Origin: a virus
Lineage: Duplodnaviria; Caudoviricetes
Virus record (IMG/VR): IMGVR_UViG_3300042276_000119
Span: 1 to 64,000 of that record
Strand: one strand, 5' to 3'
DNA length: 64,000 nucleotides
Shown here: positions 1,143 to 58,981 of the stretch, in pieces
Layout of the letters: each line of letters starts with the position of its first letter
How positions within the stretch are numbered: position 1 is the stretch's first letter
Made by a program: the position numbers and the translations under genes
The notes under the pieces: generated by a model
The model's input: only the letters and a program-made list of their open reading frames with translations
Told to the model about the DNA's origin: nothing
Database searches by the model: none

Positions 1143-1295
1143 GGCCCCACAGGCGACCAAACCTGTGGGGCCGTGAAAGCTGGGGACCAACCCAGCTCCC
1201 TAACCAAAAGACCACTAGAACGACCAAGAACTAGCGGCAAAGCCAATATCGCACAATCAGCCTTTGCCATCAAGTTATTTGGTTAAACCATAAAT
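1143..1295 (+). ncRNA. Candidate structured RNA or leader with GACCAA-loop hairpins
   Basis: Perfect 11-bp stem 1143-1172 (loop CGACCAAA), 7-bp stem 1178-1197 (loop GACCAA), further weaker stems to ~1295; intergenic before terL. Confidence 0.5.
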
Positions 1296-1312: not shown

Positions 1313-3130
1313 ATGGCAGATACCGTTACAGAAGGCTTCCTCACACGCATTAACTCCCGCGTGGACTCGATAGAAGGGCAGGCGAAGCACTCCGAGTGGG
1401 TGCAGAAGCACACCAGCATTGAGGGCCGGCCATTCAGCTTTCAGGACCACGAGATGCAGCAGGAGATATTCGACGATCCTGCCTCCCGTATCGCTGTCAA
1501 GAAGTGCTCACAGATCGGCCTGTCAGAGCTGCAGGTGCGAAAACTGCTGACCATCGCGGCTGTTGCCCGGTACGTCCGTGTGATCTACACACTCCCGACC
1601 CGGCAGTTCGCCATGCGATTCTCGAAAGACCGTATCGACTCGACCATTGCTCAGTCAGAGACCCTGAGCGGGATGTTGAAGCGCGGCGCTGATGCTGCAG
1701 AGCAGAAGATTTTCACCAACTCAAACGTCATCTATGTCACTGGTACCTTCGGTGACGTATCTGCGATCTCAGTACCTGCTACCTATGTCGTAAACGACGA
1801 GTTGGACTTCTCCAACCTAGAAGTCATCGGCAAGATGTCATCGCGCCTGCGTCACGCCCCGATGAACAAGGATGGCTACCGTGGGTATCACTACAAGTTC
1901 AGCACTCCCACGCTGCCCAACTTCGGGGTGGCCGAGGCATTTGAATCCGGCAGTCAGGCGTACTACATGGTGCAGTGCGAGAAGTGCAATCACTATCAGG
2001 CACCGAGCTGGTACAAGGACTTTGTGATCCCTGGGTGGGACAACCCGCTCGATGAGCTGGATGGCCAGGTTGTCAGAATGCTCATGGACAGAGGCCTGCA
2101 CCAGAACGCCTATCTCAAGTGCGAGAAGTGCGGCCACGACCTACAGAACTCCCTGCTTGATCCTGCCAAGCGGCAGTGGGTGCGCAAGCACCCTGATCGG
2201 GTTGAGAGTTCCTACCAGATCAGTCCGTGGGATGTACCGACCTACAACACTCCCAAGTCGATCCTGACACAGTTCCCTGAATACGCACGTACCATGGACT
2301 TCTACAACTTCGTACTCGGCCTTGAGTATGAGGATGCTGATTCGGTATTCATCACTGAGAACTTCAGGACCCAGGTGCAGGCGCAGTGGAAGGCCTACAT
2401 CGAGGATCAGGTGGAGGTGGGTGCCCTCATGCGGATCATCTTCTCCAATGCGGTTGCCGGGATGGACGTAGGCAAGATTTGTCACTTCACTGTGGCCATC
2501 CCACAAGGCAAGTCGATGCACATCGTCTACGCGGAGGAGATTCACCACACCCAGGCCAAGCCAGCCAAAAACAAGATCATGGCCAGGATCGCCTATTTTG
2601 GCGTCAGGACGTTTTGTATGGACGCCGGGCCAGACATCACACTGGTACGAGAACTCACGTCCTGGGGCTGGATGAATGGCGTCAACGCCTATGCGGTGGA
2701 GTACGTGAAGAAAGTGGGCCTGAAGACCTACGAACTGCCGGATGATCCTGCTGCCGAACCGGTGGCCAAGGTCAACAGGACGAACATGTTCTCCGACCTG
2801 ATGAAGCTGCACAACACCGGCTACATCCAGTACCCGCGCCGGGATGCGGCGCCGATCATGGATGTGTTCAAGGAGCAGGTCACCAACGTCAAGAAAATCT
2901 CCCGGGAAGACGGTACCGGGGACATGATCGAGGTCATCGTGAAGACCGGCCCAGACCACTTCGGGCACAGTCTGAACTATACCTATTTGGCATTTCTGAT
3001 CGCGTCAGAAGGTGGACGGTCACATGTGGTCGGCGCGTTACCAGGGGTCTCCGGGGTGAAAATGCGGGACTCCGATTTCGACGAGGATGCTGAGCGCCTG
3101 AGAGACCCGTTGGCTGCGTTCAGACGGTAA
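1313..3130 (+). CDS. terL: Terminase large subunit (lambda gpA-like)
   Basis: gpA-type Walker A KKCSQIGLSE, Walker B VVNDELD, coupling motif FSTPT, CEKC..CEKC Zn ribbon, nuclease motifs AGMDVG and PDHFGHS. Confidence 0.92.
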   Translation: MADTVTEGFLTRINSRVDSIEGQAKHSEWVQKHTSIEGRPFSFQDHEMQQEIFDDPASRIAVKKCSQIGLSELQVRKLLTIAAVARYVRVIYTLPTRQFAMRFSKDRIDSTIAQSETLSGMLKRGADAAEQKIFTNSNVIYVTGTFGDVSAISVPATYVVNDELDFSNLEVIGKMSSRLRHAPMNKDGYRGYHYKFSTPTLPNFGVAEAFESGSQAYYMVQCEKCNHYQAPSWYKDFVIPGWDNPLDELDGQVVRMLMDRGLHQNAYLKCEKCGHDLQNSLLDPAKRQWVRKHPDRVESSYQISPWDVPTYNTPKSILTQFPEYARTMDFYNFVLGLEYEDADSVFITENFRTQVQAQWKAYIEDQVEVGALMRIIFSNAVAGMDVGKICHFTVAIPQGKSMHIVYAEEIHHTQAKPAKNKIMARIAYFGVRTFCMDAGPDITLVRELTSWGWMNGVNAYAVEYVKKVGLKTYELPDDPAAEPVAKVNRTNMFSDLMKLHNTGYIQYPRRDAAPIMDVFKEQVTNVKKISREDGTGDMIEVIVKTGPDHFGHSLNYTYLAFLIASEGGRSHVVGALPGVSGVKMRDSDFDEDAERLRDPLAAFRR

Positions 3131-3140
3131 CTCCAACCTT

Positions 3141-3191
3141 TGTCCAAATGTACATTTGACACTTATACACAAGGCAATGTACATTTGGACA
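3141..3191 (+). promoter_or_regulatory. xis/int promoter framed by a 16-bp inverted repeat operator
   Basis: TGTCCAAATGTACATT (3141-3156) and AATGTACATTTGGACA (3176-3191); TTGACA at 3156, TACATT at 3180. Confidence 0.7.
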
Positions 3192-3225
3192 TATACCAAC
3201 TAGCTTCTGACCAAAAGTGACCAAC

Positions 3226-3552
3226 ATGACCACACCTGTTAAAATGGATGTAATGCCGCACAAGGCATATTGCGACCTGATCGGCAAAGGCGATCAGTAT
3301 GTCAAAGGCAAGATCAAAGATGGCAAGTGGGAGGAGGGCGTACAGTTCTTCCGCGATCCCGATGGCCAGATTTGGGTTTCTCTATCAGGTGTGGAAGCGT
3401 GGGTGAAAAGCAGTATCCAACGGGCGTCCGGCCATACGGCTCAGGCATCCAAGTCCGTTTCAGCTGGGACAAGAAGCGGTACGAGCCAATCTGGCCGCGC
3501 AAGCCGAGCCCGAAAAACCTCGCAGCAGCCTCAGCCCTTCGTGCTGAGATAA
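3226..3552 (+). CDS. xis: Excisionase-like protein
   Basis: Winged-helix-like KIKDGKWEEGVQFFRDPDGQIWVSLSGVEAWV, directly upstream of and overlapping the integrase; ATG 3226 preferred. Confidence 0.75.
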   Translation: MTTPVKMDVMPHKAYCDLIGKGDQYVKGKIKDGKWEEGVQFFRDPDGQIWVSLSGVEAWVKSSIQRASGHTAQASKSVSAGTRSGTSQSGRASRARKTSQQPQPFVLR

Positions 3553-4544
3553 TCCTACGCGCCAAAAGCGGGATACTCTCACTGGAATATCTCGCTGACC
3601 ACTTCCCTGAATACGCCCACGCCAAAGAACACTCTGAAGCCAATCCGAAGTACCTCCTTTGCACCCTGGCACAGGATTTTCTCGATAACAGCGGGATGCC
3701 TGCCAACAGCAGAACGTCATACCGACAGCAGCTCAATGCCTACGTGATGCCAGAACTGGCTCAGGTAGATGTGCGCTATTGCACAGAGGGTGACCTGGTG
3801 GCATGGAGCCGGGCGCAGAAGTTCACCTCCCAGTCCGTGCGCAACATCGCCTACAGCGCCCTGAGAAAAGTCATGGCCCTGGCAGTGAGTTACGGGTACA
3901 TACCAAAGTCACCGGCTGAAGCATTAAAGATCACCAAAGATACCGACACCGAACCTGACCCTTTGACCCCAGAGGAGAGAGACACTGTGCTCGCCTGGCT
4001 GGAGAAGAAGTACCCTGGCCGGCAGAGGCCGATCTACCTGTACTACGTTCTGGGATTCTGGACAGGTATGCGGCCAAGCGAGATGATCGCACTGGAACAG
4101 CGGGACGTGATGCTCAGCACCGGACGAGTATCAGTGACGAAGCTCATTTCAAAAGGGCAGGTGCAGGCGTACACCAAGACCAAGAAAAACCGGATCGTAC
4201 TGATGAACGAATTCTCTCGCCAGGCGTTTGAGGAGCTGCTGGAATTGGGAAAGGGCAATCCTGTTTCCCATAGGCTACTCTGGACGTACCGGGCGCCAGA
4301 GGGATTCAAGAGCCTCACCACGTTCCGTGATCGGCTGAACCAGGCGTTCGTGGAGTCTGGTATTCGTGTCAGAAGCACGTATTCTATGCGCCACACCTAT
4401 GCGTCGGTGTGCCTCATGGCAGGCATCACGCCTGCGTTTGTAGCTCAGCAGTTGGGAAACACAGTGCCGGTGCTTTTGAGCCGGTATGCGAAGTGGATCA
4501 GCTCCGATGCCGACATGCTTGAAATGTCGAAATTGGGAAAATAA
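3399..4544 (+). CDS. int: Tyrosine integrase with N-terminal arm-binding domain (DUF3596-like)
   Basis: GVRPYGSGIQVRFSW arm domain; catalytic TGMRPSE, KTKK, YSMRHTYA, QLGN, RYAKW. GTG 3399 is a more plausible start than 3270. Confidence 0.92.
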   Translation: MGEKQYPTGVRPYGSGIQVRFSWDKKRYEPIWPRKPSPKNLAAASALRAEIILRAKSGILSLEYLADHFPEYAHAKEHSEANPKYLLCTLAQDFLDNSGMPANSRTSYRQQLNAYVMPELAQVDVRYCTEGDLVAWSRAQKFTSQSVRNIAYSALRKVMALAVSYGYIPKSPAEALKITKDTDTEPDPLTPEERDTVLAWLEKKYPGRQRPIYLYYVLGFWTGMRPSEMIALEQRDVMLSTGRVSVTKLISKGQVQAYTKTKKNRIVLMNEFSRQAFEELLELGKGNPVSHRLLWTYRAPEGFKSLTTFRDRLNQAFVESGIRVRSTYSMRHTYASVCLMAGITPAFVAQQLGNTVPVLLSRYAKWISSDADMLEMSKLGK

Positions 4545-4771
4545 TGGGAAACGAAAAATACCGACGCTTGTAACCGCCTGATATTAAAGGCGTTTTGAAA
4601 ACCTTTTGATAAGACATGGTTGTCAACGCTTACCCGTCTCGATCCACCACGACCCAGAAAACAACCACTTACCCATCGTTTCGGTTCGACACAGTGGGAA
4701 AATTGGGTTCAGTTTTGGGAAAATCGACCCCTTAAAAGTCCATTTGGGAAAAAATTTGGGAAACCGGGAAA
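4534..4771. other. Probable attP region with arm-type repeats
   Basis: TGGGAAA at 4534, 4545, 4695, 4716, 4745, 4757 (and CGGGAAA at 4765) flank a ~140-bp non-coding gap directly after int. Confidence 0.7.
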
Positions 4772-4812
4772 GGTCATAATTACCTGTCTGATAACCTGAT
4801 TTCTTGACAGGC

Positions 4813-4841
4813 TTGTACAAATGTACATTTGTACATAAAAT
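4813..4841 (+). promoter_or_regulatory. Portal-operon promoter overlapped by a 22-bp palindromic operator
   Basis: TTGTAC-N17-TAAAAT; perfect palindrome TGTACAAATGTACATTTGTACA at 4814-4835. Confidence 0.7.
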
Positions 4842-4870
4842 GGCGCTCATGTACTCCATGGTGATCGTCA

Positions 4871-6316
4871 ATGGCCGCAGTCTCGTCAGGTAAAAAGCAG
4901 CAAGTCATCTTGCCAAAGCGGCAGGTTGGCAAGGTGCGTTCCGGCACTCCTTATGCAGGGGAACGGGACTCTGACATCTCAAATCCGTATGAGCGGTTTG
5001 TAGAAGAGCTGTCCAGCGTCCTCCGTAAGCGAGGGGACTCCACAGCGATCATCCGGGCGCTCGCCGCCCAAGACGGCATGATGTCCACCGCCGTCTACTC
5101 CATGGTTCAGATTGCAAAAACCGAACACGATGTAATCGCCTACGACAGCGAGACCAACGCTGCGTCGAAGGAAGGTACGTTGATCGCCCAGTACATCATG
5201 GGACTGATGGATACCCTCAGCGATTACAGCAAGGGCTTCAACCACAAGCGCTCGATCAACGCCGTCAAGGAAACCCTCATCCGCGAGGTGGGCCTGACAG
5301 GCGGCTGCGCAGGTGAGTTGGTCCTGAATGATCAGATGCTGCCAGATCGCATCCAGGTCGTCGCCTACAACACCCTCAGCAAGAAGTCTGATGGTAAGGG
5401 TGCCTATTACCCGACTCAGAAAGCCTCCAGCGGTGGCGAGGATGTGAATCTCAACATCCCGACGTTCTTTGTGGCTGAGAGCAACCTGGAAGCAGAAGAC
5501 GCTTATGCGTTCTCACTGTTCCGCGCCGGCCTCAAGCAGTCGTTCATGTTGCAGGAATTCCTGGAGGACACTCGCCGTGGCGTTCGCAAAACCGGACACA
5601 GCCGTCTGGTCGCCAAGCTCATCACTGAGCAGATTGCGGCCACAGCCAGTCAGGAAACCAAGAACGATCCCAAGAAAATGGCGGCGTACCTGGCACAGGT
5701 CAAGGCCGATGTTGAGACAGCACTTGCCGGGATTGAGCCAGATGACGCAGTGGTGTCATTCGACTCCGTAGAATTCAGCGTGGAAGACACCGGGGGCAAC
5801 AAGTCTGACTACGCACCACTGCTGAAACTGCTCTCGAACATGACCGGCAGCTCTATGAAGACCCCAAGCTCCATCTCTGGTCTTCGCACAGACGGCTCTC
5901 AATCACTGAGCAATGCAGAGACGCTGACTTACCTCAAGATCGCCAAATCCCTCACCGCCCCGGTAGAAGACCTGATGAGTCGCATCCTGACTCTGGCCAC
6001 CAGGCTGTACGGTCTCCCGGTGTACGTGAAATTCAAGATGCGCGAGATCGACTTGCGCCCTGACAGTGAGCTGGAAGCCTACAAAACAGCTCGCCAGAAC
6101 AGAATCCTTCAACTGCTGTCGTTCGGCCTTATGGACGATGTTACCGCCCGGTGCGACCTCGGCATCCGAATCACTTCGGACATGACAGAGCTGGCAGGAA
6201 CCGGTTTTTACACCGCCTCCCAAGGTGAACCAGAAGCACCCGTAGATCGGGCAGATGCAATGGGCAAAGACCTGAATCCAGGTACACCGACCAAAGCAGG
6301 GGGCTCCGATCAGTGA
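4871..6316 (+). CDS. Portal protein
   Basis: 481 aa, helical, first gene of the head cluster before the protease; called from synteny and size. Confidence 0.75.
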   Translation: MAAVSSGKKQQVILPKRQVGKVRSGTPYAGERDSDISNPYERFVEELSSVLRKRGDSTAIIRALAAQDGMMSTAVYSMVQIAKTEHDVIAYDSETNAASKEGTLIAQYIMGLMDTLSDYSKGFNHKRSINAVKETLIREVGLTGGCAGELVLNDQMLPDRIQVVAYNTLSKKSDGKGAYYPTQKASSGGEDVNLNIPTFFVAESNLEAEDAYAFSLFRAGLKQSFMLQEFLEDTRRGVRKTGHSRLVAKLITEQIAATASQETKNDPKKMAAYLAQVKADVETALAGIEPDDAVVSFDSVEFSVEDTGGNKSDYAPLLKLLSNMTGSSMKTPSSISGLRTDGSQSLSNAETLTYLKIAKSLTAPVEDLMSRILTLATRLYGLPVYVKFKMREIDLRPDSELEAYKTARQNRILQLLSFGLMDDVTARCDLGIRITSDMTELAGTGFYTASQGEPEAPVDRADAMGKDLNPGTPTKAGGSDQ

Positions 6317-10363: not shown

Positions 10364-11259
10364 ACCTGACCAGGGTTGCAAACCACTTCAACGCCAACGA
10401 GTTCGAGTACATGGACCCGGTAACTCGACAGTGGGTGGACGGTTTTGAGGGGCGGTTCGCAGCTGCAGACAGGTTCTTGTCCAACTTCAACCGGCCTACC
10501 CGAAAGCGGATGTTGAACTGTGCGTTCGACCTGAATCTTGAGCCGTATGACGTTATCAGGTCGAAGGCCACGAAAGAGGTCTACCTGCTTGGTGTCGCCC
10601 GTCGGGACACCCTATGGATGCAAGAGATCACTCAGCTGATCATCTGCCACATGGTAACCCCAGACCTGTCAGCCGGGATCGCGGTCGTAGAGCGTCCAAG
10701 TGTCTCTGGCACTGGCGACGACCTCGGTTGGGTCACACTGCAGCCGATCACCGAGACATACATCGACTTGGAACTGCGTACAACGGCCAAGGAGCCCGGT
10801 TCTAAGCAGGTGGAGCTTGGGCACTACTTCGGCTTTGCCGAGGCCAGAATGGACGTTAAAGACGGCGACAGGCTTACTCTGAACGGCGTGTACTACGTGG
10901 TGGACGAAGCTGCTTACGATTCAGGGTTCAGATTGCTACGACTGACGGATCGGGACGTTCACTATGTCGATATGGTGTTCACTATCAGTGCCGGTACCCG
11001 TACTTACGACCGCACCACCGGACAGTACACCAGCACACCGGTCACCAGAAACGTCAGCGGCATTCTGACAGACCTGCATGACTCTGATGACGGCTTCTCA
11101 AAAGACTCTGCGGACTACACCGAGGTGCGGATCGAGCTGGATCACATCGGGTTTGAGCCTAAACCCAATATGGCAGTGGAGCTGAACGGCAAGTCGTACA
11201 CGATCAGCTATGTCCAGCAGGCGGAATATCGCCGGCAGTGGATTGTGAGGATGAAGTGA
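10360..11259 (+). CDS. Head closure/neck protein
   Basis: ATGA-coupled; beta-barrel-like segments GDRLTLNGVYYVV and VELNGKSYTI. Confidence 0.55.
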   Translation: MNLTRVANHFNANEFEYMDPVTRQWVDGFEGRFAAADRFLSNFNRPTRKRMLNCAFDLNLEPYDVIRSKATKEVYLLGVARRDTLWMQEITQLIICHMVTPDLSAGIAVVERPSVSGTGDDLGWVTLQPITETYIDLELRTTAKEPGSKQVELGHYFGFAEARMDVKDGDRLTLNGVYYVVDEAAYDSGFRLLRLTDRDVHYVDMVFTISAGTRTYDRTTGQYTSTPVTRNVSGILTDLHDSDDGFSKDSADYTEVRIELDHIGFEPKPNMAVELNGKSYTISYVQQAEYRRQWIVRMK

Positions 11260-11837: not shown

Positions 11838-12268
11838 TGCCAACAACACTCCCACAAGTAAAACTGGCCCTGATCAACCACCTGCTCGACAACTGGCCGT
11901 CAACCCCCATCTGCGAGTCAGGTGCCGGTGGCGTAGACATCTCTGGGCAGGTGCAGGACAACCTGTTTGACAGTGAGTACGAATTTATTGAAATAGACAT
12001 CGGCCTCACCGCTCGCGGTGCGGCCGGCGTAAGCAGGCACTCCGGTACCCGTGTGCTTGCGTACCTTGATGTACAAATGTACATAATGCCTGGAAGTGGT
12101 ACCATGCGGTTGGCCGAATTGGAAAGCCAGCTATACCCGCTAGTTGAGAGGAAAACGATAGGCGGAGCGGAAATCCGTAACGCCCAAGGACAGTCCAAAC
12201 CCTACGAATTCCGTGGAAGGCTGACCAAGATCGTTTCATTCCCAATCGAGTATTTTGAAACAACCTAA
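11837..12268 (+). CDS. Tail terminator protein
   Basis: 143 aa directly before the tail tube; VQMYIMPGSG...VSFPIEY pattern. Confidence 0.6.
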   Translation: MPTTLPQVKLALINHLLDNWPSTPICESGAGGVDISGQVQDNLFDSEYEFIEIDIGLTARGAAGVSRHSGTRVLAYLDVQMYIMPGSGTMRLAELESQLYPLVERKTIGGAEIRNAQGQSKPYEFRGRLTKIVSFPIEYFETT

Positions 12269-13338: not shown

Positions 13339-13389
13339 TTGTACAAATGTACAAATGTGCTGTAGTATCTTATGCACATTTGTACATTT
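13339..13389 (+). promoter_or_regulatory. Promoter with TGTACA operators upstream of tail chaperone
   Basis: TTGTAC-N18-(TG)TAGTAT; TGTACAAATGTACAAATGTGC and TGCACATTTGTACATTT. Confidence 0.6.
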
Positions 13390-13847: not shown

Positions 13848-14191
13848 GCTGGTACGCTCGTCATGGGGATGTCAATCTGGCATCCCTTCACGAAGCCTGG
13901 AGGCGATGGGGTGAAAAGCCAAAGGTTCTTCAGGAGCACGACGAACTCCCTCAGCTACCGTCGCACTTCAACGAAGCCTTCCACGTTTTCAACTTCCTCA
14001 AGCAGCTAAGACCCTCCAATGAAACGGGCTACCAGCCTATCCCTCTCACCGATGTACAAATGTACATTTGTACCACGTTGCGGTATTCTGACCCCGTTTA
14101 TACCCGGTGGCTCACCGAGGTTGTCGTGGGCTGTGACGCCGCCGAACGCCGGGTAATTTCACAGAAGCTCTCAGAGAAGCAGGGTACTTAA
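13835..14191 (+). CDS. -1 frameshift extension (gpGT-like), absent from the ORF track
   Basis: A AAA AAG at 13835-13841; the -1 frame (VVSWYARHG...SEKQGT) stays open to TAA 14189-14191, 1 nt before the tape measure ATG. Confidence 0.85.
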   Translation, partial: KKVVSWYARHGDVNLASLHEAWRRWGEKPKVLQEHDELPQLPSHFNEAFHVFNFLKQLRPSNETGYQPIPLTDVQMYICTTLRYSDPVYTRWLTEVVVGCDAAERRVISQKLSEKQGT

Positions 14192-27722: not shown

Positions 27723-27784
27723 CCTTTGTGGGTGACTTTGCTCATGTGTTAATGTACATTTGCACATTATGAGAGGACTGTGCA

Positions 27785-33210: not shown

Positions 33211-33225
33211 TGTGCAAATGTACAT

Positions 33226-47563: not shown

Positions 47564-47638
47564 TGGTGGCCCCGAGGAGAATCAAACTCCAGTCGTCTCG
47601 GTTATGAGCCAAGCTGCTTTATCATAAGCTACAGGGCC
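47564..47638 (-). tRNA. tRNA with CAT anticodon (Ile2-like or Met), atypical
   Basis: GGCCCTG/CGGGGCC acceptor, loop CTCATAA, encoded CCA; short D-loop, T-loop TTTGATT. Confidence 0.8.
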
Positions 47639-47639
47639 T

Positions 47640-47715
47640 TGGCACCCTCGGCAGGACTCAAACCTGCAACCAACGGAGTAGAAATCCGATGCTCTTTCGA
47701 TTGAGCTACGAGGGC
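47640..47715 (-). tRNA. tRNA-Arg(TCT)
   Basis: GCCCTCG/CGAGGGT acceptor, GCTC/GAGC D-stem, loop TTTCTAC, GCAGG-TTTGAGT-CCTGC, CCA. Confidence 0.88.
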
Positions 47716-53563: not shown

Positions 53564-54889
53564 TTATACAGCGATAAATTTCTTGCGATTTACATACAGC
53601 TCGTTGGCCGGTCGTGTAGCGCCAACGTAGAGGAGCTTCAATTGCTCCTGCAGGACTTTCTGTTTCTGGATGTCGATCACGTCAAGGAACACGGTGCCGA
53701 AGGTAGAGCCCTGTGACCGGTGAACCGTGATGGCGTAGCAGTGTTTAACCTGGTGGACAGATTCTTTCACCTCCCAGTACATCCCCCAGTCGCCAGTCTT
53801 TTTGGCGTAGGCAGCGATATCTCTCAGGTGTCCGTAGAACTCGTCCTGGTGGTTACGGTGAAGTACATGCACCACAACGTCTCTTGCCTGGGAGTGCAGA
53901 GGTTCGATCACCAGCGTCCACACTGGAAATAGCAGGGAGCTGTTGAACGCGCTGGGCACCACGTCCTGCTCGACAGCTTTAACAACGCATTCTTCATCTG
54001 TAGGGAGCAGTATGTTGCCGTCATCATCTTTAACCACGTCTGTGGTCACCACCCGGTCACCAACGATGAACTGCGGCACCTTTTTGCCGTGCCAGTGTTG
54101 CCTGAAGGCGTGGTTCAGTTCGTCCACACGGCGGTTGGTCCATGCCAACATGCGGCACTTGTCGGTGTCTTCCGGGTCAATGCGATCCAGGGCCAGCTTC
54201 ACAAACGCCGGTCCGAGCGCGGCTTCCACACCTGAACCATCGCTGCCTCTCGACTCCTCGATGGCGGGGAGTCGCTTGCGGTTGTCGATGCAGGAGCGGA
54301 GCTGGTTGGCCAGGGTCAGGATCGGACCGGAGTAGCGCTCAACCTTTGTGAGGGTGTAGGAATCGCCCATATCGAACGCTTCGCAGCGTTGCTCCATAAC
54401 CGGTGGCAGCTGGTAAGGGTCGCCCATGAACAGGATTTTTGTTGGGGTACCCACCACGGCGTCTTCGAGAATGTCCAGCGCCCGGCTCGGGCACATGGAG
54501 GCTTCATCGACTACCACAATGTCGTAGTTGCCGATCTTCGCTTTGCCGGCCCGGACAATGGATTTGCGCTCCTCGTTGGGCAGCACGGCCAGGCCCAGGG
54601 CAGAATGCAGGGTGGAGCAGTCGTACATAACGCCGTATGCGGATGCCATCTTGGCCAACACCCTTACAGCCTTGTTGGTTGGTGCACACAGCAGAATCTT
54701 GCAGCCTTTCTCACGGTAGGGCTCTAAAACGTGAAAAACCGAAGTGGACTTGCCGGTACCGCCTCCGCCTTGCAGCGAGAAGTAACGATTACTGCCTCGG
54801 GCGGGTAAACCCTCGACAACCTTGGTGCTGAGAAACGTATCAATCTTCTGGGTAGCCTCAAGCTGCCCATCATTGAGTTTGATGGTCAT
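53564..54889 (-). CDS. Dda/RecD-like SF1B helicase
   Basis: GGGGTGKS, APTNKA, VVDEASM, GDPYQLPPV, YAITVHRSQGSTF, LYVGATR; start 54889 after the ACCA leader. Confidence 0.92.
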   Translation of the reverse strand: MTIKLNDGQLEATQKIDTFLSTKVVEGLPARGSNRYFSLQGGGGTGKSTSVFHVLEPYREKGCKILLCAPTNKAVRVLAKMASAYGVMYDCSTLHSALGLAVLPNEERKSIVRAGKAKIGNYDIVVVDEASMCPSRALDILEDAVVGTPTKILFMGDPYQLPPVMEQRCEAFDMGDSYTLTKVERYSGPILTLANQLRSCIDNRKRLPAIEESRGSDGSGVEAALGPAFVKLALDRIDPEDTDKCRMLAWTNRRVDELNHAFRQHWHGKKVPQFIVGDRVVTTDVVKDDDGNILLPTDEECVVKAVEQDVVPSAFNSSLLFPVWTLVIEPLHSQARDVVVHVLHRNHQDEFYGHLRDIAAYAKKTGDWGMYWEVKESVHQVKHCYAITVHRSQGSTFGTVFLDVIDIQKQKVLQEQLKLLYVGATRPANELYVNRKKFIAV

Positions 54890-54921
54890 GGTCGTTCCTT
54901 TTTGGTCTGGTCTTTTGGTCG

Positions 54922-54971
54922 TGTACAAATGTACAAAGGCACATTAAAGCGTTAGCACGTCAGTAAGTCAA
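54922..54971 (-). promoter_or_regulatory. sigma70-like promoter with downstream TGTACA operator
   Basis: TTGACT-N17-TTTAAT, then TGTACATTTGTACA near +1. Confidence 0.65.
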
Positions 54972-54992
54972 CGCAATAATGTTTCGGAGGTG

Positions 54993-55265
54993 TTACGGGA
55001 ATGTAACGTCGTGGATGCGATCTGAGATGAGTGTCAGTTTAGCGTAGGTCTGAAAGTCTGGAGCTATAGAGTGCATTGCGAGTTCTGACGAATCATCAAT
55101 AGCTATTGAGTCCCCACCTATATACACCCACTGATCTTCCTCAGTTTTGTCTGGCTGAGTAATCTTCAGATTTGCACCACCGTTGAGGTGGTCCACTTCT
55201 TTGAGTTGGTATTGGGCACCGTCAATCTTCAGGGTTTGCCCGATCTTGATAGAGATGTGAAGCAT
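54993..55265 (-). CDS. Small beta-rich protein with CsrA-like N-terminus
   Basis: MLHISIKIGQTLKIDG resembles CsrA MLILTRRVGETLMIG; AAGGA RBS. Confidence 0.45.
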   Translation of the reverse strand: MLHISIKIGQTLKIDGAQYQLKEVDHLNGGANLKITQPDKTEEDQWVYIGGDSIAIDDSSELAMHSIAPDFQTYAKLTLISDRIHDVTFP

Positions 55266-55500
55266 ACGCGTTCCTTTTGGCTATGGCTTGCTGTTCTGCA
55301 AGTCTGAGGTGTTTTCGTTGGTAGTACCAATTCACAAAGAAGGTTGCCATGCCTAAGACAACCCCGAATGCGAGGGCGTTGTTGTTCAAGAAATCCAGCA
55401 TACCCGCTGCAGTGAGTCCACCACTGGCTGTGTACGAAACTCCAGTGCTAACTTTAGCTGCAAGGGTAGTCGTGTGTTCTGATAGAGTAGGGCCTGCCAT
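55222..55500 (-). CDS. Holin (class II-like)
   Basis: TGVSY.ASGG...GVVLGMATFFVNWYYQRK; coupled to the endolysin. Confidence 0.85.
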   Translation of the reverse strand: MAGPTLSEHTTTLAAKVSTGVSYTASGGLTAAGMLDFLNNNALAFGVVLGMATFFVNWYYQRKHLRLAEQQAIAKRNAYASHLYQDRANPED

Positions 55501-55988
55501 TATCGAACCACCTCTACGTGAGGGAGGTCAATAAATGACTGGTCCAAACGGTCGTGATCTCTGTCCCAATCGTCTCCGAAGCGTAGCTTTACGCCGTGCA
55601 CCTTACCGAACGCCATGAGAACCCCCTTCATCGTGGCGTATTCCTGCAGGACGAGTTCCCAGATGCGTTTTTCAGTTTTGCCGGTGGCTTTGGCAAGCGC
55701 TTTGATCTGGTCGGGGTGCCCGGAGAGGGCGGATGAAACCCGGATACCTGCCAGGTTTGTGACGTAGGGCCATAGGTCTACAGCGTCTGATGGGTAGGTG
55801 TTGTGTTTTCCGTTTGGCCACTTTACCTTGGTAACACCTTTGGCAAAGTACCGGTCTTGGGTCTCTTGGTCACGGTGACCTTCAATCATGGAGAAGTTGT
55901 AGACCTGAATAGCAGAATCTACTATCAACTTCAGCTCATCGCAGAGGGTTTCCCGTACTTCTGATGACTTGCGACCGAATGAAAACAT
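55500..55988 (-). CDS. Endolysin, M15 peptidase (T5-like L-Ala-D-Glu type)
   Basis: EGHR...Q, KH....DAVDL, RFGDDW...FIDLPHVE Zn-peptidase motifs. Confidence 0.9.
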   Translation of the reverse strand: MFSFGRKSSEVRETLCDELKLIVDSAIQVYNFSMIEGHRDQETQDRYFAKGVTKVKWPNGKHNTYPSDAVDLWPYVTNLAGIRVSSALSGHPDQIKALAKATGKTEKRIWELVLQEYATMKGVLMAFGKVHGVKLRFGDDWDRDHDRLDQSFIDLPHVEVVR

Positions 55989-56066
55989 GGCGGGCTCGTG
56001 TGTTGGTTGTTCATAATGTACAAATGTACATTTTGCAACCGAACTTTTCCACCCTACGTTTTTGGG

Positions 56067-56432
56067 CTATTTGACCAGTTTGAGTACCGGTCGAGGCCGC
56101 TTGCTGTCGCTTTCCCTTGTAGCTTGCGCCGTTTTCTTCCTGTGCAGGTTCATAGCATGTCTTGCTGAATTGGCCATTCCAGAGTGAATTATTTCCATCA
56201 GCAAGTCTCGCGGTTGCAGGTTGTGCTGTCTGGCGTGACTGATCAGGATTGCCCAATCCATTGGACTGAACGACTCCACGATGTCCCTGGGCAAAACGGA
56301 TTCGATGTCCAGCAACAGGCGCTCCACTGCTGGCAGCAGGCTTTCAACCGTGTAGGTCTTGCCTTGCTGGGCCGCGCTCATGCTCATGCACTCACATATT
56401 TGGGTTGTCAGTCTTCTCATGGGTCCTGCCAA
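56067..56432 (-). CDS. Hypothetical protein
   Basis: In operon; ends RPRPVLKLVK; start uncertain. Confidence 0.55.
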   Translation of the reverse strand: MAGPMRRLTTQICECMSMSAAQQGKTYTVESLLPAVERLLLDIESVLPRDIVESFSPMDWAILISHARQHNLQPRDLLMEIIHSGMANSARHAMNLHRKKTAQATRESDSKRPRPVLKLVK

Positions 56433-56793
56433 ATGGCAAATGGACCACGTTTCCCTTTACAGTGGGCTTGAGGCTCGGTGGTTCGGGTACAAGGTACACG
56501 TCATCCTTCAAATCGGAAAACTGTCTCGCACCTATTACCAGCAAGTCTGTAATGAAGGCTTTACCGCTCATACCTTTGACCATTCCGGCCGGCAGCGCGT
56601 TGATGATGTGGTTCCATTCAGGTTGGGTAAGCTCCATCTCCAGAAGTACCTTCCACAGTTGTGGACCCACCCAATTTCTCATTCTGTGGAACGCGGCTAT
56701 CGCACCACCTCTACCTTGTCCGATCTTTGCTTCCCACTGTGCAAGAAACAGGGTCTCTATTTCTCTTTCAGTGTGTTTTTTGGCCTCAGTCAT
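56392..56793 (-). CDS. Hypothetical protein
   Basis: ACCA leader plus AGGAG RBS. Confidence 0.7.
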   Translation of the reverse strand: MTEAKKHTEREIETLFLAQWEAKIGQGRGGAIAAFHRMRNWVGPQLWKVLLEMELTQPEWNHIINALPAGMVKGMSGKAFITDLLVIGARQFSDLKDDVYLVPEPPSLKPTVKGNVVHLPFGRTHEKTDNPNM

Positions 56794-56816
56794 TGGTCGC
56801 TCCTGTGGTCTTTTGG

Positions 56817-57047
56817 TTATCGTTTACCTTGTGCTCTTTCTTCAAACAGCTTGTCCAGTGCCTCAATAATTATGGCTCTCATCGTGGTGCCTTCTACGGC
56901 GGCTATGACCTTGAGCTTATTTCTGTAGCTCTCTGGTACGTTAACAGGTATTCGTATGTCTGCTCCTGTGCCGCCTTTACCTCCTTTGGAGTTGCTTTTC
57001 GCCTGTTCTAGCAGGGCTTTCAGTTCTGTGTTAGCTGTGTCTGACAT
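56817..57047 (-). CDS. Ribbon-helix-helix DNA-binding protein (ParG-like)
   Basis: Flexible N-terminus, then RIPVNVPESYRNKLKVIAAVEGTTMRAIIIEALD; GGAGG RBS. Confidence 0.85.
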   Translation of the reverse strand: MSDTANTELKALLEQAKSNSKGGKGGTGADIRIPVNVPESYRNKLKVIAAVEGTTMRAIIIEALDKLFEERAQGKR

Positions 57048-57509: not shown

Positions 57510-58187
57510 TCAGTCGTCAATTAATTGGTATAACCAAAGCGATAGTTTATTGACAGTGTTATGGGATATTGGTGCGTATTTTTCACTCAGGTACGTGGCT
57601 ATTTTTCGAGTGGATTTACCCTTTGCCCAATGCAAATCTGCGAGTTCCGCAAGCGCCTGTTGGTACCAGTCAGACTCCTGCAGGTACTTCACACCCTGCA
57701 GCTCTATGACTGTGTGACCCCAGGGTACGTAACCGCCCATGAACCGGCCTTCCTCTGAATGGGCGACCTTTACATCTCGGATACGCTCGGCAATCCGACT
57801 GCGCTCAAAGTCAGCCACTGCAGCGAGAATGGTGTAGATCAGCTTACCTACCCCGTCACCCGTCACTTCGCCACCCATGTCCATTATATAGAGGCGAATG
57901 CCTTGCTCTTTGAACCGGTTGATCGAGTACAAAGCATCTTCAGAATTGCGGAACAGTCGGTCAAACTTGGCAATCAGCAGATGGTCACCTTCCTTCAACA
58001 GGTTGATAAGTTGTCCACCGGCCGGCCGTTCAGCCAGTCGTACAGAACCTGACACACCTTCATCAGCGAAGTGCTGGTCAACTTCCATCTGCATGGTGGT
58101 GGCGTAGGCCCGCAAAGTATTCTCTTGCACCTTGAGGGACATGCCCTGGGTCCCGGTAGAAACTCGGGCATAGGAGTAGACGGCCAT
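57510..58187 (-). CDS. Serine recombinase (resolvase family)
   Basis: YARVST..Q, DEGVSG...RP, GD.L...KFDRLFR, ADFERSRIAER; C-terminal HTH-like region. Confidence 0.92.
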   Translation of the reverse strand: MAVYSYARVSTGTQGMSLKVQENTLRAYATTMQMEVDQHFADEGVSGSVRLAERPAGGQLINLLKEGDHLLIAKFDRLFRNSEDALYSINRFKEQGIRLYIMDMGGEVTGDGVGKLIYTILAAVADFERSRIAERIRDVKVAHSEEGRFMGGYVPWGHTVIELQGVKYLQESDWYQQALAELADLHWAKGKSTRKIATYLSEKYAPISHNTVNKLSLWLYQLIDD

Positions 58188-58633: not shown

Positions 58634-58981
58634 TTATGTACCTCAGTGTAACGGTGTAACGGCGGTTTTGGTGTACATCTCTGTCACCCCGCAAATGCGC
58701 CGTTACACTCATGGTCAGTTTGTACCAATGGTCTTCTGGTCGAAGGTGGGTGCCTGGGCCGAAGCCCAGGACTTTTGGAGGTCGCACATGTCAGGGTGCT
58801 CATGTACAAATGTACAATTGCACCTTAGCTATTGTCAACCTTCTTCAACAACTGCTGACAATGCTTCTCCAACTGCCGGCCATCCTTACTCAACAGTTCT
58901 ACGCCAGTGATCAAGATGCGCTCTCCTTCCCCGTACTAGAAGTACGGGGAAGGAGAGCGCGAACCGCGCAAGCGGTTCTTG

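Follow-up and report, generated by a model that had tools for sequence, protein, structure and literature searches.

ORF90, an acidic protein of 90 residues encoded beside the lysis genes of an uncultured tailed phage, is predicted to have a strongly diverged CsrA fold that is built from a single chain and lacks the key arginine. All positions refer to the window, the first 64 kb of a 75,283-bp IMG/VR record. Both the fold and the evolutionary link to CsrA are supported by computation. ORF90 has lost CsrA determinants and is conserved on one presumed face, and on balance it is thus probable that the protein is a diverged, one-faced binding module of CsrA fold, which has changed its ligand and is made with the lysis proteins. 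It would be produced together with these proteins as the last gene of an endolysin–holin–ORF90 unit and would form a monomeric beta-sandwich in which one chain supplies the core of the interlocked CsrA homodimer. As judged from strand positions, residues 1–48 would stand for CsrA strands 1–5, of which strands 1–4 are detectably homologous, and residues 53–90 for strands of the partner subunit. The determinants of GGA binding, namely the C-terminal helix, the R44-equivalent Arg and the positive charge, would have been lost on the way.

The sequence-only reading had placed this gene at 54993–55265, and we recovered it there, on the minus strand, with the same sequence; it encodes 90 residues. 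Genes are ordered endolysin, holin and ORF90, followed downstream by the helicase gene (Table 1). The final 44 nt of the holin gene overlap the ORF90 start. The same order (recombinase ... endolysin–holin–ORF90) is retained in L020, a metagenome contig of a relative with 73% identity, where the CCAAAAGGAAC context of the ORF90 Shine-Dalgarno sequence is also unchanged. The 15 C-terminal residues of the holin, which overlap ORF90, differ between the window and L020, whereas the N-terminus of ORF90 encoded by this overlap is unchanged. Other genes of the phage include one for a 2688-aa tape-measure protein and a leftward replication module with DNA polymerase, SbcC-like nuclease, primase and Dda-like helicase. 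A megablast search of positions 54000–57000 against phage GenBank gave no match, and Rfam over the window returned two tRNAs and nothing else.

Table 1. Positions of ORF90, of the neighbouring lysis genes and sites, and of the terminase leader in the 64-kb window.
Feature	Position	Strand	Description
Three hairpins, GACCAA in loops	1143..1240	+	terL 5' leader; -59.1 kcal/mol, z -5.9, 0/200 shuffles
Large terminase (terL)	1313-3130	+	phrog_675 E 1e-104
Helicase leader ACGACCAAAAGACCAGACCAAAAAGGAACGACC	54890..54921	-	GACCA-repeat leader; one base differs in L020
Second TGTACAAATGTACA palindrome	54922..54935	.	between ORF90 and helicase
ORF90	54993..55265	-	90 aa, acidic, all-beta; single-chain CsrA-dimer-like predicted fold
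Holin, 92 aa	55222..55500	-	PF16080 E 1.5e-11; PF04971 E 9.5e-09; phrog_20 E 3.2e-16
Shine-Dalgarno AAGGAA of ORF90	55271..55276	-	5 nt 5' of ATG, within holin CDS; read from sequence
Endolysin, 162 aa	55500..55988	-	phrog_465 E 5.8e-19; first gene of three-gene unit
TGTACAAATGTACA palindrome	56017..56030	.	upstream of endolysin; upstream boundary of endolysin-holin-ORF90 unit

The three genes are bracketed by TGTACA palindromes and therefore look like one unit. The 14-nt palindrome TGTACANNTGTACA was found in 14 copies at no more than one mismatch, against 0.11 expected, and it may well be a regulatory site.

Two very large protein database searches yielded seven homologues of ORF90 with 90–95 aa and 61–97% identity, the more divergent ones being P0003–P0007 (61–68%). 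The phmmer search of 1.84 billion representatives gave one close relative; its three other matches, P0008–P0010, were repetitive or low-complexity proteins and were dropped. A tblastn search of ORF90 against 50,697 phage GenBank records gave no match at E <= 1, a scan of genome contigs for relatives found none, and a helicase-based search for the locus retrieved solely relatives of 97–100% identity. ORF90 is a genuine conserved gene under purifying selection and not a chance ORF. Compared with the 73%-identical copy in L020, dN/dS was 0.154 for the whole gene, 0.065 for residues 61–90 and 0.50 for residues 37–60.

From sequence alone it had been proposed that the N-terminus of ORF90 parallels strands 1–4 of CsrA. 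Profile comparison agrees with this, and the similarity of ORF90 strands 1–4 to CsrA is suggestive rather than conclusive. For this experiment a CsrA alignment of 12 sequences was used, consisting of E. coli K-12 CsrA and the phage CsrAs found with it. In hhalign, residues 1–40 of the ORF90 family were aligned to CsrA 1–39 with a score of 28.7, a P value of 2.7e-5 and a probability of 74%. The probability was 85% when the N-terminal half of ORF90 was used alone, and 59% in a second run (P 9.3e-5). As a control, alignment columns were shuffled. The real score was reached by none of 200 shuffles of the CsrA columns and by none of 200 shuffles of the family columns (mean 10.0, sd about 2.2, maximum 18.5). 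It lies 8 sd above these 400 shuffles, in an alignment that runs from N-terminus to N-terminus over 38 columns. Because shuffling breaks the alternation typical of beta strands, the control is on the lenient side. The reversed alignment reached a score of 11.4.

HMM searches gave weak echoes of the same relationship. The phrog_8397 family, annotated as 'CsrA-like regulator', was hit by 4 of the 8 family members (best E 0.11), and PF02599 by one of the 8 (E 0.066). ORF90 itself had no match to PF02599 at E <= 1, and thus did not reach the Pfam gathering cut-off of 27 bits; nor did PF02599 match anything in the whole phage genome at E <= 10. A search of the family profile against PDB sequences at E <= 10 returned seven chains, none of them CsrA. 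The second half of ORF90 had been proposed to be a second copy of the first, and the sequence comparison did not bear this out. The N-terminal half aligned with the C-terminal half over 9 columns at P 0.04, and the C-terminal half with CsrA over 14 columns at P 0.028, so that hhalign showed neither a repeat nor a similarity of the second half to CsrA. The lack of a significant HMM match and of CsrA similarity in the C-terminal half would fit a protein that resembles CsrA by convergence or only trivially, that is, an orphan with a generic beta-sandwich. The same could be said of weak PDB-sequence matches to ricin-B-type lectin repeats (E 0.004). The hhalign score and the N-terminus to N-terminus alignment speak against such an origin. 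A ricin-B lectin was also considered as an identity for ORF90 and was rejected, as the match, which involves a QxW-like stretch, lacked significance, a trefoil would need a longer chain, and the model does not show that fold.

The structure was predicted with AlphaFold2 on the 8-sequence alignment. The resulting ORF90 model is all-beta with a pLDDT of 90.9 and a pTM of 0.82, and the ESM Atlas model of the protein has a pTM of 0.74. Strands were predicted at residues 2–7, 11–14, 17–25, 30–36, 42–48, 53–57, 60–67 and 74–81, with a short bridge at 87–88. The predicted protein thus has 8–9 strands and no helix, and it is modelled confidently as a monomer. A Foldseek search of the model against PDB gave nothing at E <= 0.001. 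The best match was an archaeal S-layer domain (3u2g, TMq 0.61), and CsrA chains were absent from the best 50 PDB matches listed. However, one CsrA chain taken alone does not form a compact domain, and for this reason the PDB result is not decisive for a likeness to CsrA. In BFVD, seven entries matched at E <= 0.001. The first of these was a 114-aa 'Carbon storage regulator' with a TMq of 0.78, and the others were unnamed proteins of 85–200 aa. Near neighbours in the ESM Atlas included a 94-aa cluster, 69% of whose members carry PF02599 (TM 0.75), and an 88-aa cluster named 'carbon storage regulator family' (TM 0.77). S-layer, DUF11 and ResB domains were likewise among the nearest Atlas neighbours, and the ORF90 sandwich could therefore be a generic one. 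A second Atlas search limited to named clusters added nothing.

As a control experiment, the natural tandem CsrA–CsrA fusion P0022 was folded and then searched against BFVD. The beta core of this model was confident, and its first strands (2–7, 11–14, 18–26 and 29–36) lie near the corresponding strands of ORF90. All 17 of the best BFVD matches of the tandem CsrA model were within the best 19 matches of ORF90. One bridging entry of 88 aa, A0A6G5YEX0, had TM values of 0.76/0.78 to ORF90 with an rmsd of 2.0, and a target-normalised TM of 0.87 to tandem CsrA with an rmsd of 2.3. Since tandem CsrA retrieves the same viral structures, ORF90 appears to mimic the core of the CsrA dimer with one chain; the structural link from ORF90 to the dimer is transitive and runs through predicted models throughout. 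From these models we conclude that ORF90 falls in a structural class, as distinct from a curated family, of small phage proteins whose single chain reproduces the core of the CsrA dimer. Members are all-beta proteins of 80–115 aa with a fold like a covalent CsrA dimer, and the ORF90 model shares these features, with a TMq of 0.68–0.80 to the best BFVD entries.

The earlier suggestion that one chain takes the place of the CsrA dimer is in line with these predictions, namely the shared BFVD matches, the strand positions and the Atlas cluster that bears PF02599. The check by AlphaFold and Foldseek thus largely supported a CsrA-like fold, with a confident all-beta model and CsrA neighbours in BFVD and the Atlas, though no PDB match was significant. 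For a generic sandwich, the S-layer domain as best PDB fold and the ResB and DUF11 neighbours in the Atlas have to be counted in favour. Against it stand the near-identical positions of strands 1–4 in tandem CsrA, the viral structural neighbours that are all common to the two models, and the CsrA-annotated clusters among the nearest Atlas models. We consider it unlikely that the resemblance to CsrA arose by convergence or is trivial.

We then compared ORF90 with CsrA at the positions that matter for RNA binding. Strand 1 reads MLHISIK in ORF90 versus MLILTRR in CsrA, so that R6 and R7 are replaced by I6 and K7. The sequence-only reading had noted that the TRR and HREE motifs are missing, and this was correct also for HREE, which ORF90 does not contain. 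R44 is one of three invariant columns in the CsrA alignment (12 of 12 sequences), and a passage in PMC7366521 describes it as essential for RNA binding by CsrA. In the global hhalign alignment, the equivalent position of ORF90 is the variable Q45. When the second half is anchored by predicted secondary structure, in our reading the equivalent would be the invariant F89. Arg is found at neither of these two positions of ORF90. In addition, ORF90 has a pI of 4.72 and a net charge of -7. All 8 family members are acidic (pI 4.72–5.14, net charge -4 to -8), compared with a pI of 8.16 for E. coli CsrA. Judged from sequence, the acidic charge argues against GGA RNA binding by ORF90. The predicted structure also departs from the CsrA pattern of about 60–75 aa, five strands with a C-terminal helix and an interlocked homodimer.

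Conservation within the ORF90 family is unevenly distributed. Invariant positions make up 9 of 12 in residues 1–12, 6 of 24 in residues 13–36, 2 of 24 in residues 37–60 and 18 of 30 in residues 61–90. Residues 1–12 are identical in 7 of the 8 sequences. Segment 37–60 is variable in sequence but acidic in every member, with 5–7 Asp or Glu residues. In CsrA, each RNA-binding face is formed where strand 1 of one chain meets strand 5 of the other. From the strand positions and the short turn at 49–52 in the model, ORF90 residues 1–48 probably correspond to CsrA strands 1–5. Residues 53–57, 60–67, 74–81 and 87–88 would then be strands 2', 3', 4' and 5' of the partner, with strand 1' missing. With this assignment, the two conserved segments, namely strand 1 and the C-terminal 30 residues, would come together at one RNA-binding face, and the variable acidic segment 37–60 would lie in the region expected at the second face.

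The likeness to the CsrA/RsmA/RsmE family (PF02599) concerns the first four strands, which occupy the same positions and have the pattern MLxxSxKxGQTLxI in ORF90 versus MLxLTRRxGETLxI in CsrA, and the predicted sandwich, which resembles the dimer core. CsrA is also phage-borne, with 99 phage records matching E. coli CsrA by tblastn. In contrast to CsrA, which consists of two chains of about 61 aa, ORF90 is one chain of 90 aa, lacks the C-terminal helix and stays below every HMM threshold. To our knowledge, all descriptions of CsrA present it as an obligate interlocked dimer that has two RNA-binding faces.

Closer in size and predicted fold are single-chain CsrA-like phage proteins of 80–115 aa, represented by the BFVD entries A0A6J5RUQ1 ('Carbon storage regulator') and A0A6G5YEX0 and by the 94- and 88-aa Atlas clusters. 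Their TM values to ORF90 are 0.68–0.80 for the best dozen BFVD entries and 0.75–0.77 for the Atlas clusters. However, they have no detectable sequence similarity to ORF90, with 9–20% identity in structural alignments, and 69% of the members of the 94-aa cluster still carry the Pfam CsrA signature, which ORF90 lacks. The natural tandem fusions P0022–P0030 (139–172 aa) likewise hold two CsrA halves in one chain with a predicted CsrA-like core. They are the nine best-scoring fusions from a search that took in CsrA proteins of at least 138 aa. In contrast to ORF90, they retain two full and recognisable PF02599 domains, each with its helix and its HRxE motif, and they are longer by about 50 residues; in ORF90 a single half can be recognised, and helices are absent. 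A tblastn search with E. coli CsrA and Bcep22 gp54 returned canonical copies (about 60 aa) and forms of the phage F116 type with 123 aa, and no single-chain form like ORF90.

[quoted passage not shown] Unlike ORF90, the YqeH domain belongs to a large cellular GTPase, and a swap of segments relates its topology to that of CsrA. The 3ec1 structure was not among the best 50 PDB matches listed for the ORF90 model. In PMC7366521, 30 phages with csrA alleles are reported, which were found by PSI-BLAST. A full-text literature search returned no paper on single-chain CsrA-like phage proteins in the texts it covered, and the nearest was the YqeH note (PMC2954204).

Small phage proteins that appear to rebuild the CsrA core in one chain thus form a class that is visible in structure databases, and ORF90 would be an extreme member of it, which has kept the fold and one conserved face and shed the arginine and the positive charge. 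It therefore illustrates the extent to which this scaffold can diverge, and it may represent a change of ligand.

The ligand and the role of ORF90 we infer from these features. In rough terms, a protein partner is a tentative first choice as ligand, an RNA other than GGA a slightly more doubtful one, and some other ligand, or none, less probable again. If a protein were bound, an RNA-regulator fold would have been recruited to the lysis module. A related explanation makes ORF90 an accessory of lysis, a cytoplasmic regulator that binds, for example, the basic cytoplasmic tail of the holin or the endolysin and tunes the timing, with the CsrA fold as a mere scaffold. It would account for the position of ORF90 as third gene of the palindrome-bracketed unit, overlapping the holin gene, for the gene order kept in L020, and for the pairing of an acidic protein with a holin tail rich in Lys and Arg. 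However, neighbourhood alone is weak evidence, ORF90 matched no PHROG lysis family, and the corresponding genes of the distant phages PMBT3 and SHOU24 are unrelated to it. ORF90 contains no transmembrane segment (maximum Kyte-Doolittle value 0.59 over 19 residues), and neither a Cys nor a lipobox. Having neither a hydrophobic segment nor a Cys, it is neither a spanin nor a membrane antiholin, and these two identities, which call for a transmembrane segment or a lipobox Cys, were ruled out. A complex prediction of holin with ORF90 scored 0.00, below the mark at which it would give a verdict. A role confined to lysis is a rather improbable account of the protein.

The sequence-only reading had gone further and connected the protein with ACCA leaders of replication and early genes. 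Such A/C-rich leaders with a GACCA motif do exist. GACCAA occurs 59 times against 37.8 expected, a number reached in 0 of 100 shuffles. At least two GACCA-type copies were found in the region -45..-1 at 10 of 75 heuristic gene starts, compared with 0.5–1.2% of background windows. A near-uniform leader, CT(G/A)ACCAAAAGACCAAAGGACCAGACC-ATG, precedes the SbcC-like nuclease and phosphoesterase genes, and shortened or variant leaders precede the polymerase, 143-aa, 265-aa, helicase and 297-aa genes. The motif was also found before two structural-module genes (8385 and 22256). It is consequently not restricted to early genes. Since the Shine-Dalgarno sequence is part of the motif, the simplest reading is a shared, unstructured A/C-rich region of translation initiation.

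The second element of the proposal was a decoy RNA with GACCAA in its loops. The three hairpins are real (Table 1), with GACCAA at 1155, 1185 and 1222. They lie between an upstream co-directional ORF and terL, in a region that also includes a linear CTAACCAAAAGACCA core. No plus-strand promoter-like or terminator-like site was found in 900–1500, and no Rfam family matched the hairpin region. Lying in the terL leader and having neither a promoter nor a terminator of their own, the hairpins look like the leader of terL and not like a separate decoy RNA.

Protein, leaders and hairpins had been combined into a circuit. In it, ORF90 would be a translational regulator of altered specificity, made late alongside the lysis proteins, that binds the GACCA leaders by one face, with the hairpins acting as a buffer. 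Its fold descends from an RNA-binding family, the conserved segments would form one CsrA RNA-binding face, and the presumed face bears the invariant residues H3, S5, K7, Y74, K76, R83, H85 and F89. On the RNA side, the motif covers the ribosome site of 10 or more genes in the mRNA-sense orientation, the hexamer is displayed in three hairpin loops, and L020 has retained both ORF90 and the helicase leader. In its functional logic the circuit, if true, would be an analogue of T4 RegA, a small phage protein whose targets are the ribosome-binding regions of numerous phage mRNAs; a kinship in sequence or fold is not expected. However, the net charge is negative in the entire family, the R44-equivalent positions are without Arg, the hairpins resemble one more regulated leader, the motif extends to structural-module genes, and it can be explained by translation initiation. 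We found no link that ties ORF90 to the leaders or to the hairpins, and the circuit is unsupported.

Co-occurrence was examined in related phages. All relatives with the leader motif that were examined also carry ORF90, but these are the 97–100% identical phages and L020 and represent one narrow lineage, so that co-occurrence speaks neither for nor against the circuit. A scan of viral contigs with 20-mers of the leader matched solely the near-identical lineage, and a scan with 16-mers gave 53 stretches, mostly single matches that were taken for chance. Pseudomonas phage PMBT3 and Vibrio phage SHOU24, whose helicases are 31–35% identical, have neither an ORF90-like gene beside the helicase nor a repeated leader. 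The PMBT3 gene upstream of the helicase and the SHOU24 genes between endolysin and helicase are unrelated to ORF90. We regard the circuit as quite unlikely. A sharper version holds that ORF90 is a monovalent RNA binder of CsrA fold that was re-targeted from GGA to GACCA(A) and, produced along with the lysis proteins, tunes or shuts down the translation of at least 10 leader-bearing mRNAs, with the terL-leader hairpins as the site of highest affinity; we consider this very unlikely. The mRNAs concerned would include those of DNA polymerase, helicase, SbcCD-like nuclease, a capsid-module gene and terminase.

These accounts differ in what the protein would mean. If ORF90, the probable one-faced module, still bound RNA, it would be a minimal one-site CsrA scaffold with a new specificity. 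If this held together with the uniform GACCA leaders, the phage would possess a self-contained, Csr-like translational control orthogonal to that of the host.

A promoter-like sequence was noted by eye downstream of ORF90. The pair TTGACT–17 nt–TTTAAT (54971–54943, minus strand) precedes the second palindrome. It was not called by the consensus scan because its -10 element has no A at position 2. The intergenic region between ORF90 and the helicase gene, which includes the palindrome and the promoter-like hexamers, is conserved in L020.

Two repeated sequence elements were found throughout the window. The first is the palindrome TGTACANNTGTACA, which occurs in 14 copies at one mismatch or fewer, compared with 0.11 expected, and most commonly takes the form TGTACAAATGTACA. 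Operons start directly downstream of most copies, and this holds for the structural as well as the replication/lysis modules. A transcription regulator acting across the whole phage probably uses the palindrome as its operator or promoter element.

The second element is a nearly uniform A/C-rich leader with two to four GACCA/AACCAA repeats, in which the Shine-Dalgarno sequence is embedded (consensus CT[G/A]ACCAAAAGACCAAAGGACCAGACC-ATG). The 45 nt upstream of heuristically called gene starts in the window were scored, and the leader was detected at 10 of 75 starts, versus about 1% of background windows. Three hairpin loops in the leader of the large terminase gene (terL) display GACCAA, the same hexamer as in the A/C-rich leaders. 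In the distant cultured relative Vibrio phage SHOU24, two genes have an inverted repeat, TTGGTCTGAGACCAA, directly 5' of their ribosome sites, at about 1895-1925 and 10470-10500. GACCAA thereby recurs in this phage, set in a hairpin or operator.

In L020, a metagenome contig of a 73%-identical relative, the helicase locus (4144-5107) was compared. Its promoter-like region is conserved, as are the GACCA leader and the opening helicase codons. After these codons the helicase frame stops early, and it is followed by a 314-aa ORF in a different frame. This ORF carries a HELIH motif that, by reading, appears zincin-like. The arrangement resembles a mosaic junction located at the leader cassette.

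Positions of the repeated elements and of further genes, in the window unless another phage is named
Feature	Position	Strand	Match or source
Palindrome sites	3141-3191, 4814-4835, 12070-12083, 13340-13386, 14053-14074, 27753-27766, 33211-33224, 54922-54935, 56017-56030, 58803-58816
Starts of genes with GACCA leader	8385, 22256, 35959, 39414, 41213, 47076, 47539, 48747, 54889, 62634
Further GACCA-leader stretches	3205-3235, 1143-1295
tRNA gene	47567-47638	minus	Rfam RF00005, 44.2 bits
Adjacent tRNA gene	47643-47715	minus	Rfam RF00005, 63.1 bits
Tape-measure protein, 2688 aa	14193-22259	plus	phrog_9696, E 1.3e-71
Serine recombinase/resolvase	57510-58187	minus	PF00239, E 4e-33
CsrA-type proteins, 123 aa	301-672		Pseudomonas phages AUS531phi (L011), BR228a (L013), F116 (L014)

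The tRNA pair is located within the replication module. The tape-measure gene also matches 15 other tape-measure families, and its product is unusually long for such a protein. A few genes separate the serine recombinase/resolvase from the lysis unit downstream of it; the recombinase is kept in L020 and may be relevant to the phage lifestyle.

Among the CsrA sequences collected for comparison, natural CsrA-CsrA tandem fusions of 139-172 aa (P0022-P0030) retain both HRxE motifs. Some were found on several contigs from several sources (P0025 on five contigs). An AF2 model of the P0022 tandem (pLDDT 80) folds back into a CsrA-like core. The 123-aa Pseudomonas phage proteins begin with a canonical CsrA domain and extend beyond it by about 70 residues at the C-terminus. 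Their annotations vary between 'bacteriophage control infection protein', 'carbon storage regulator' and 'regulatory protein'.
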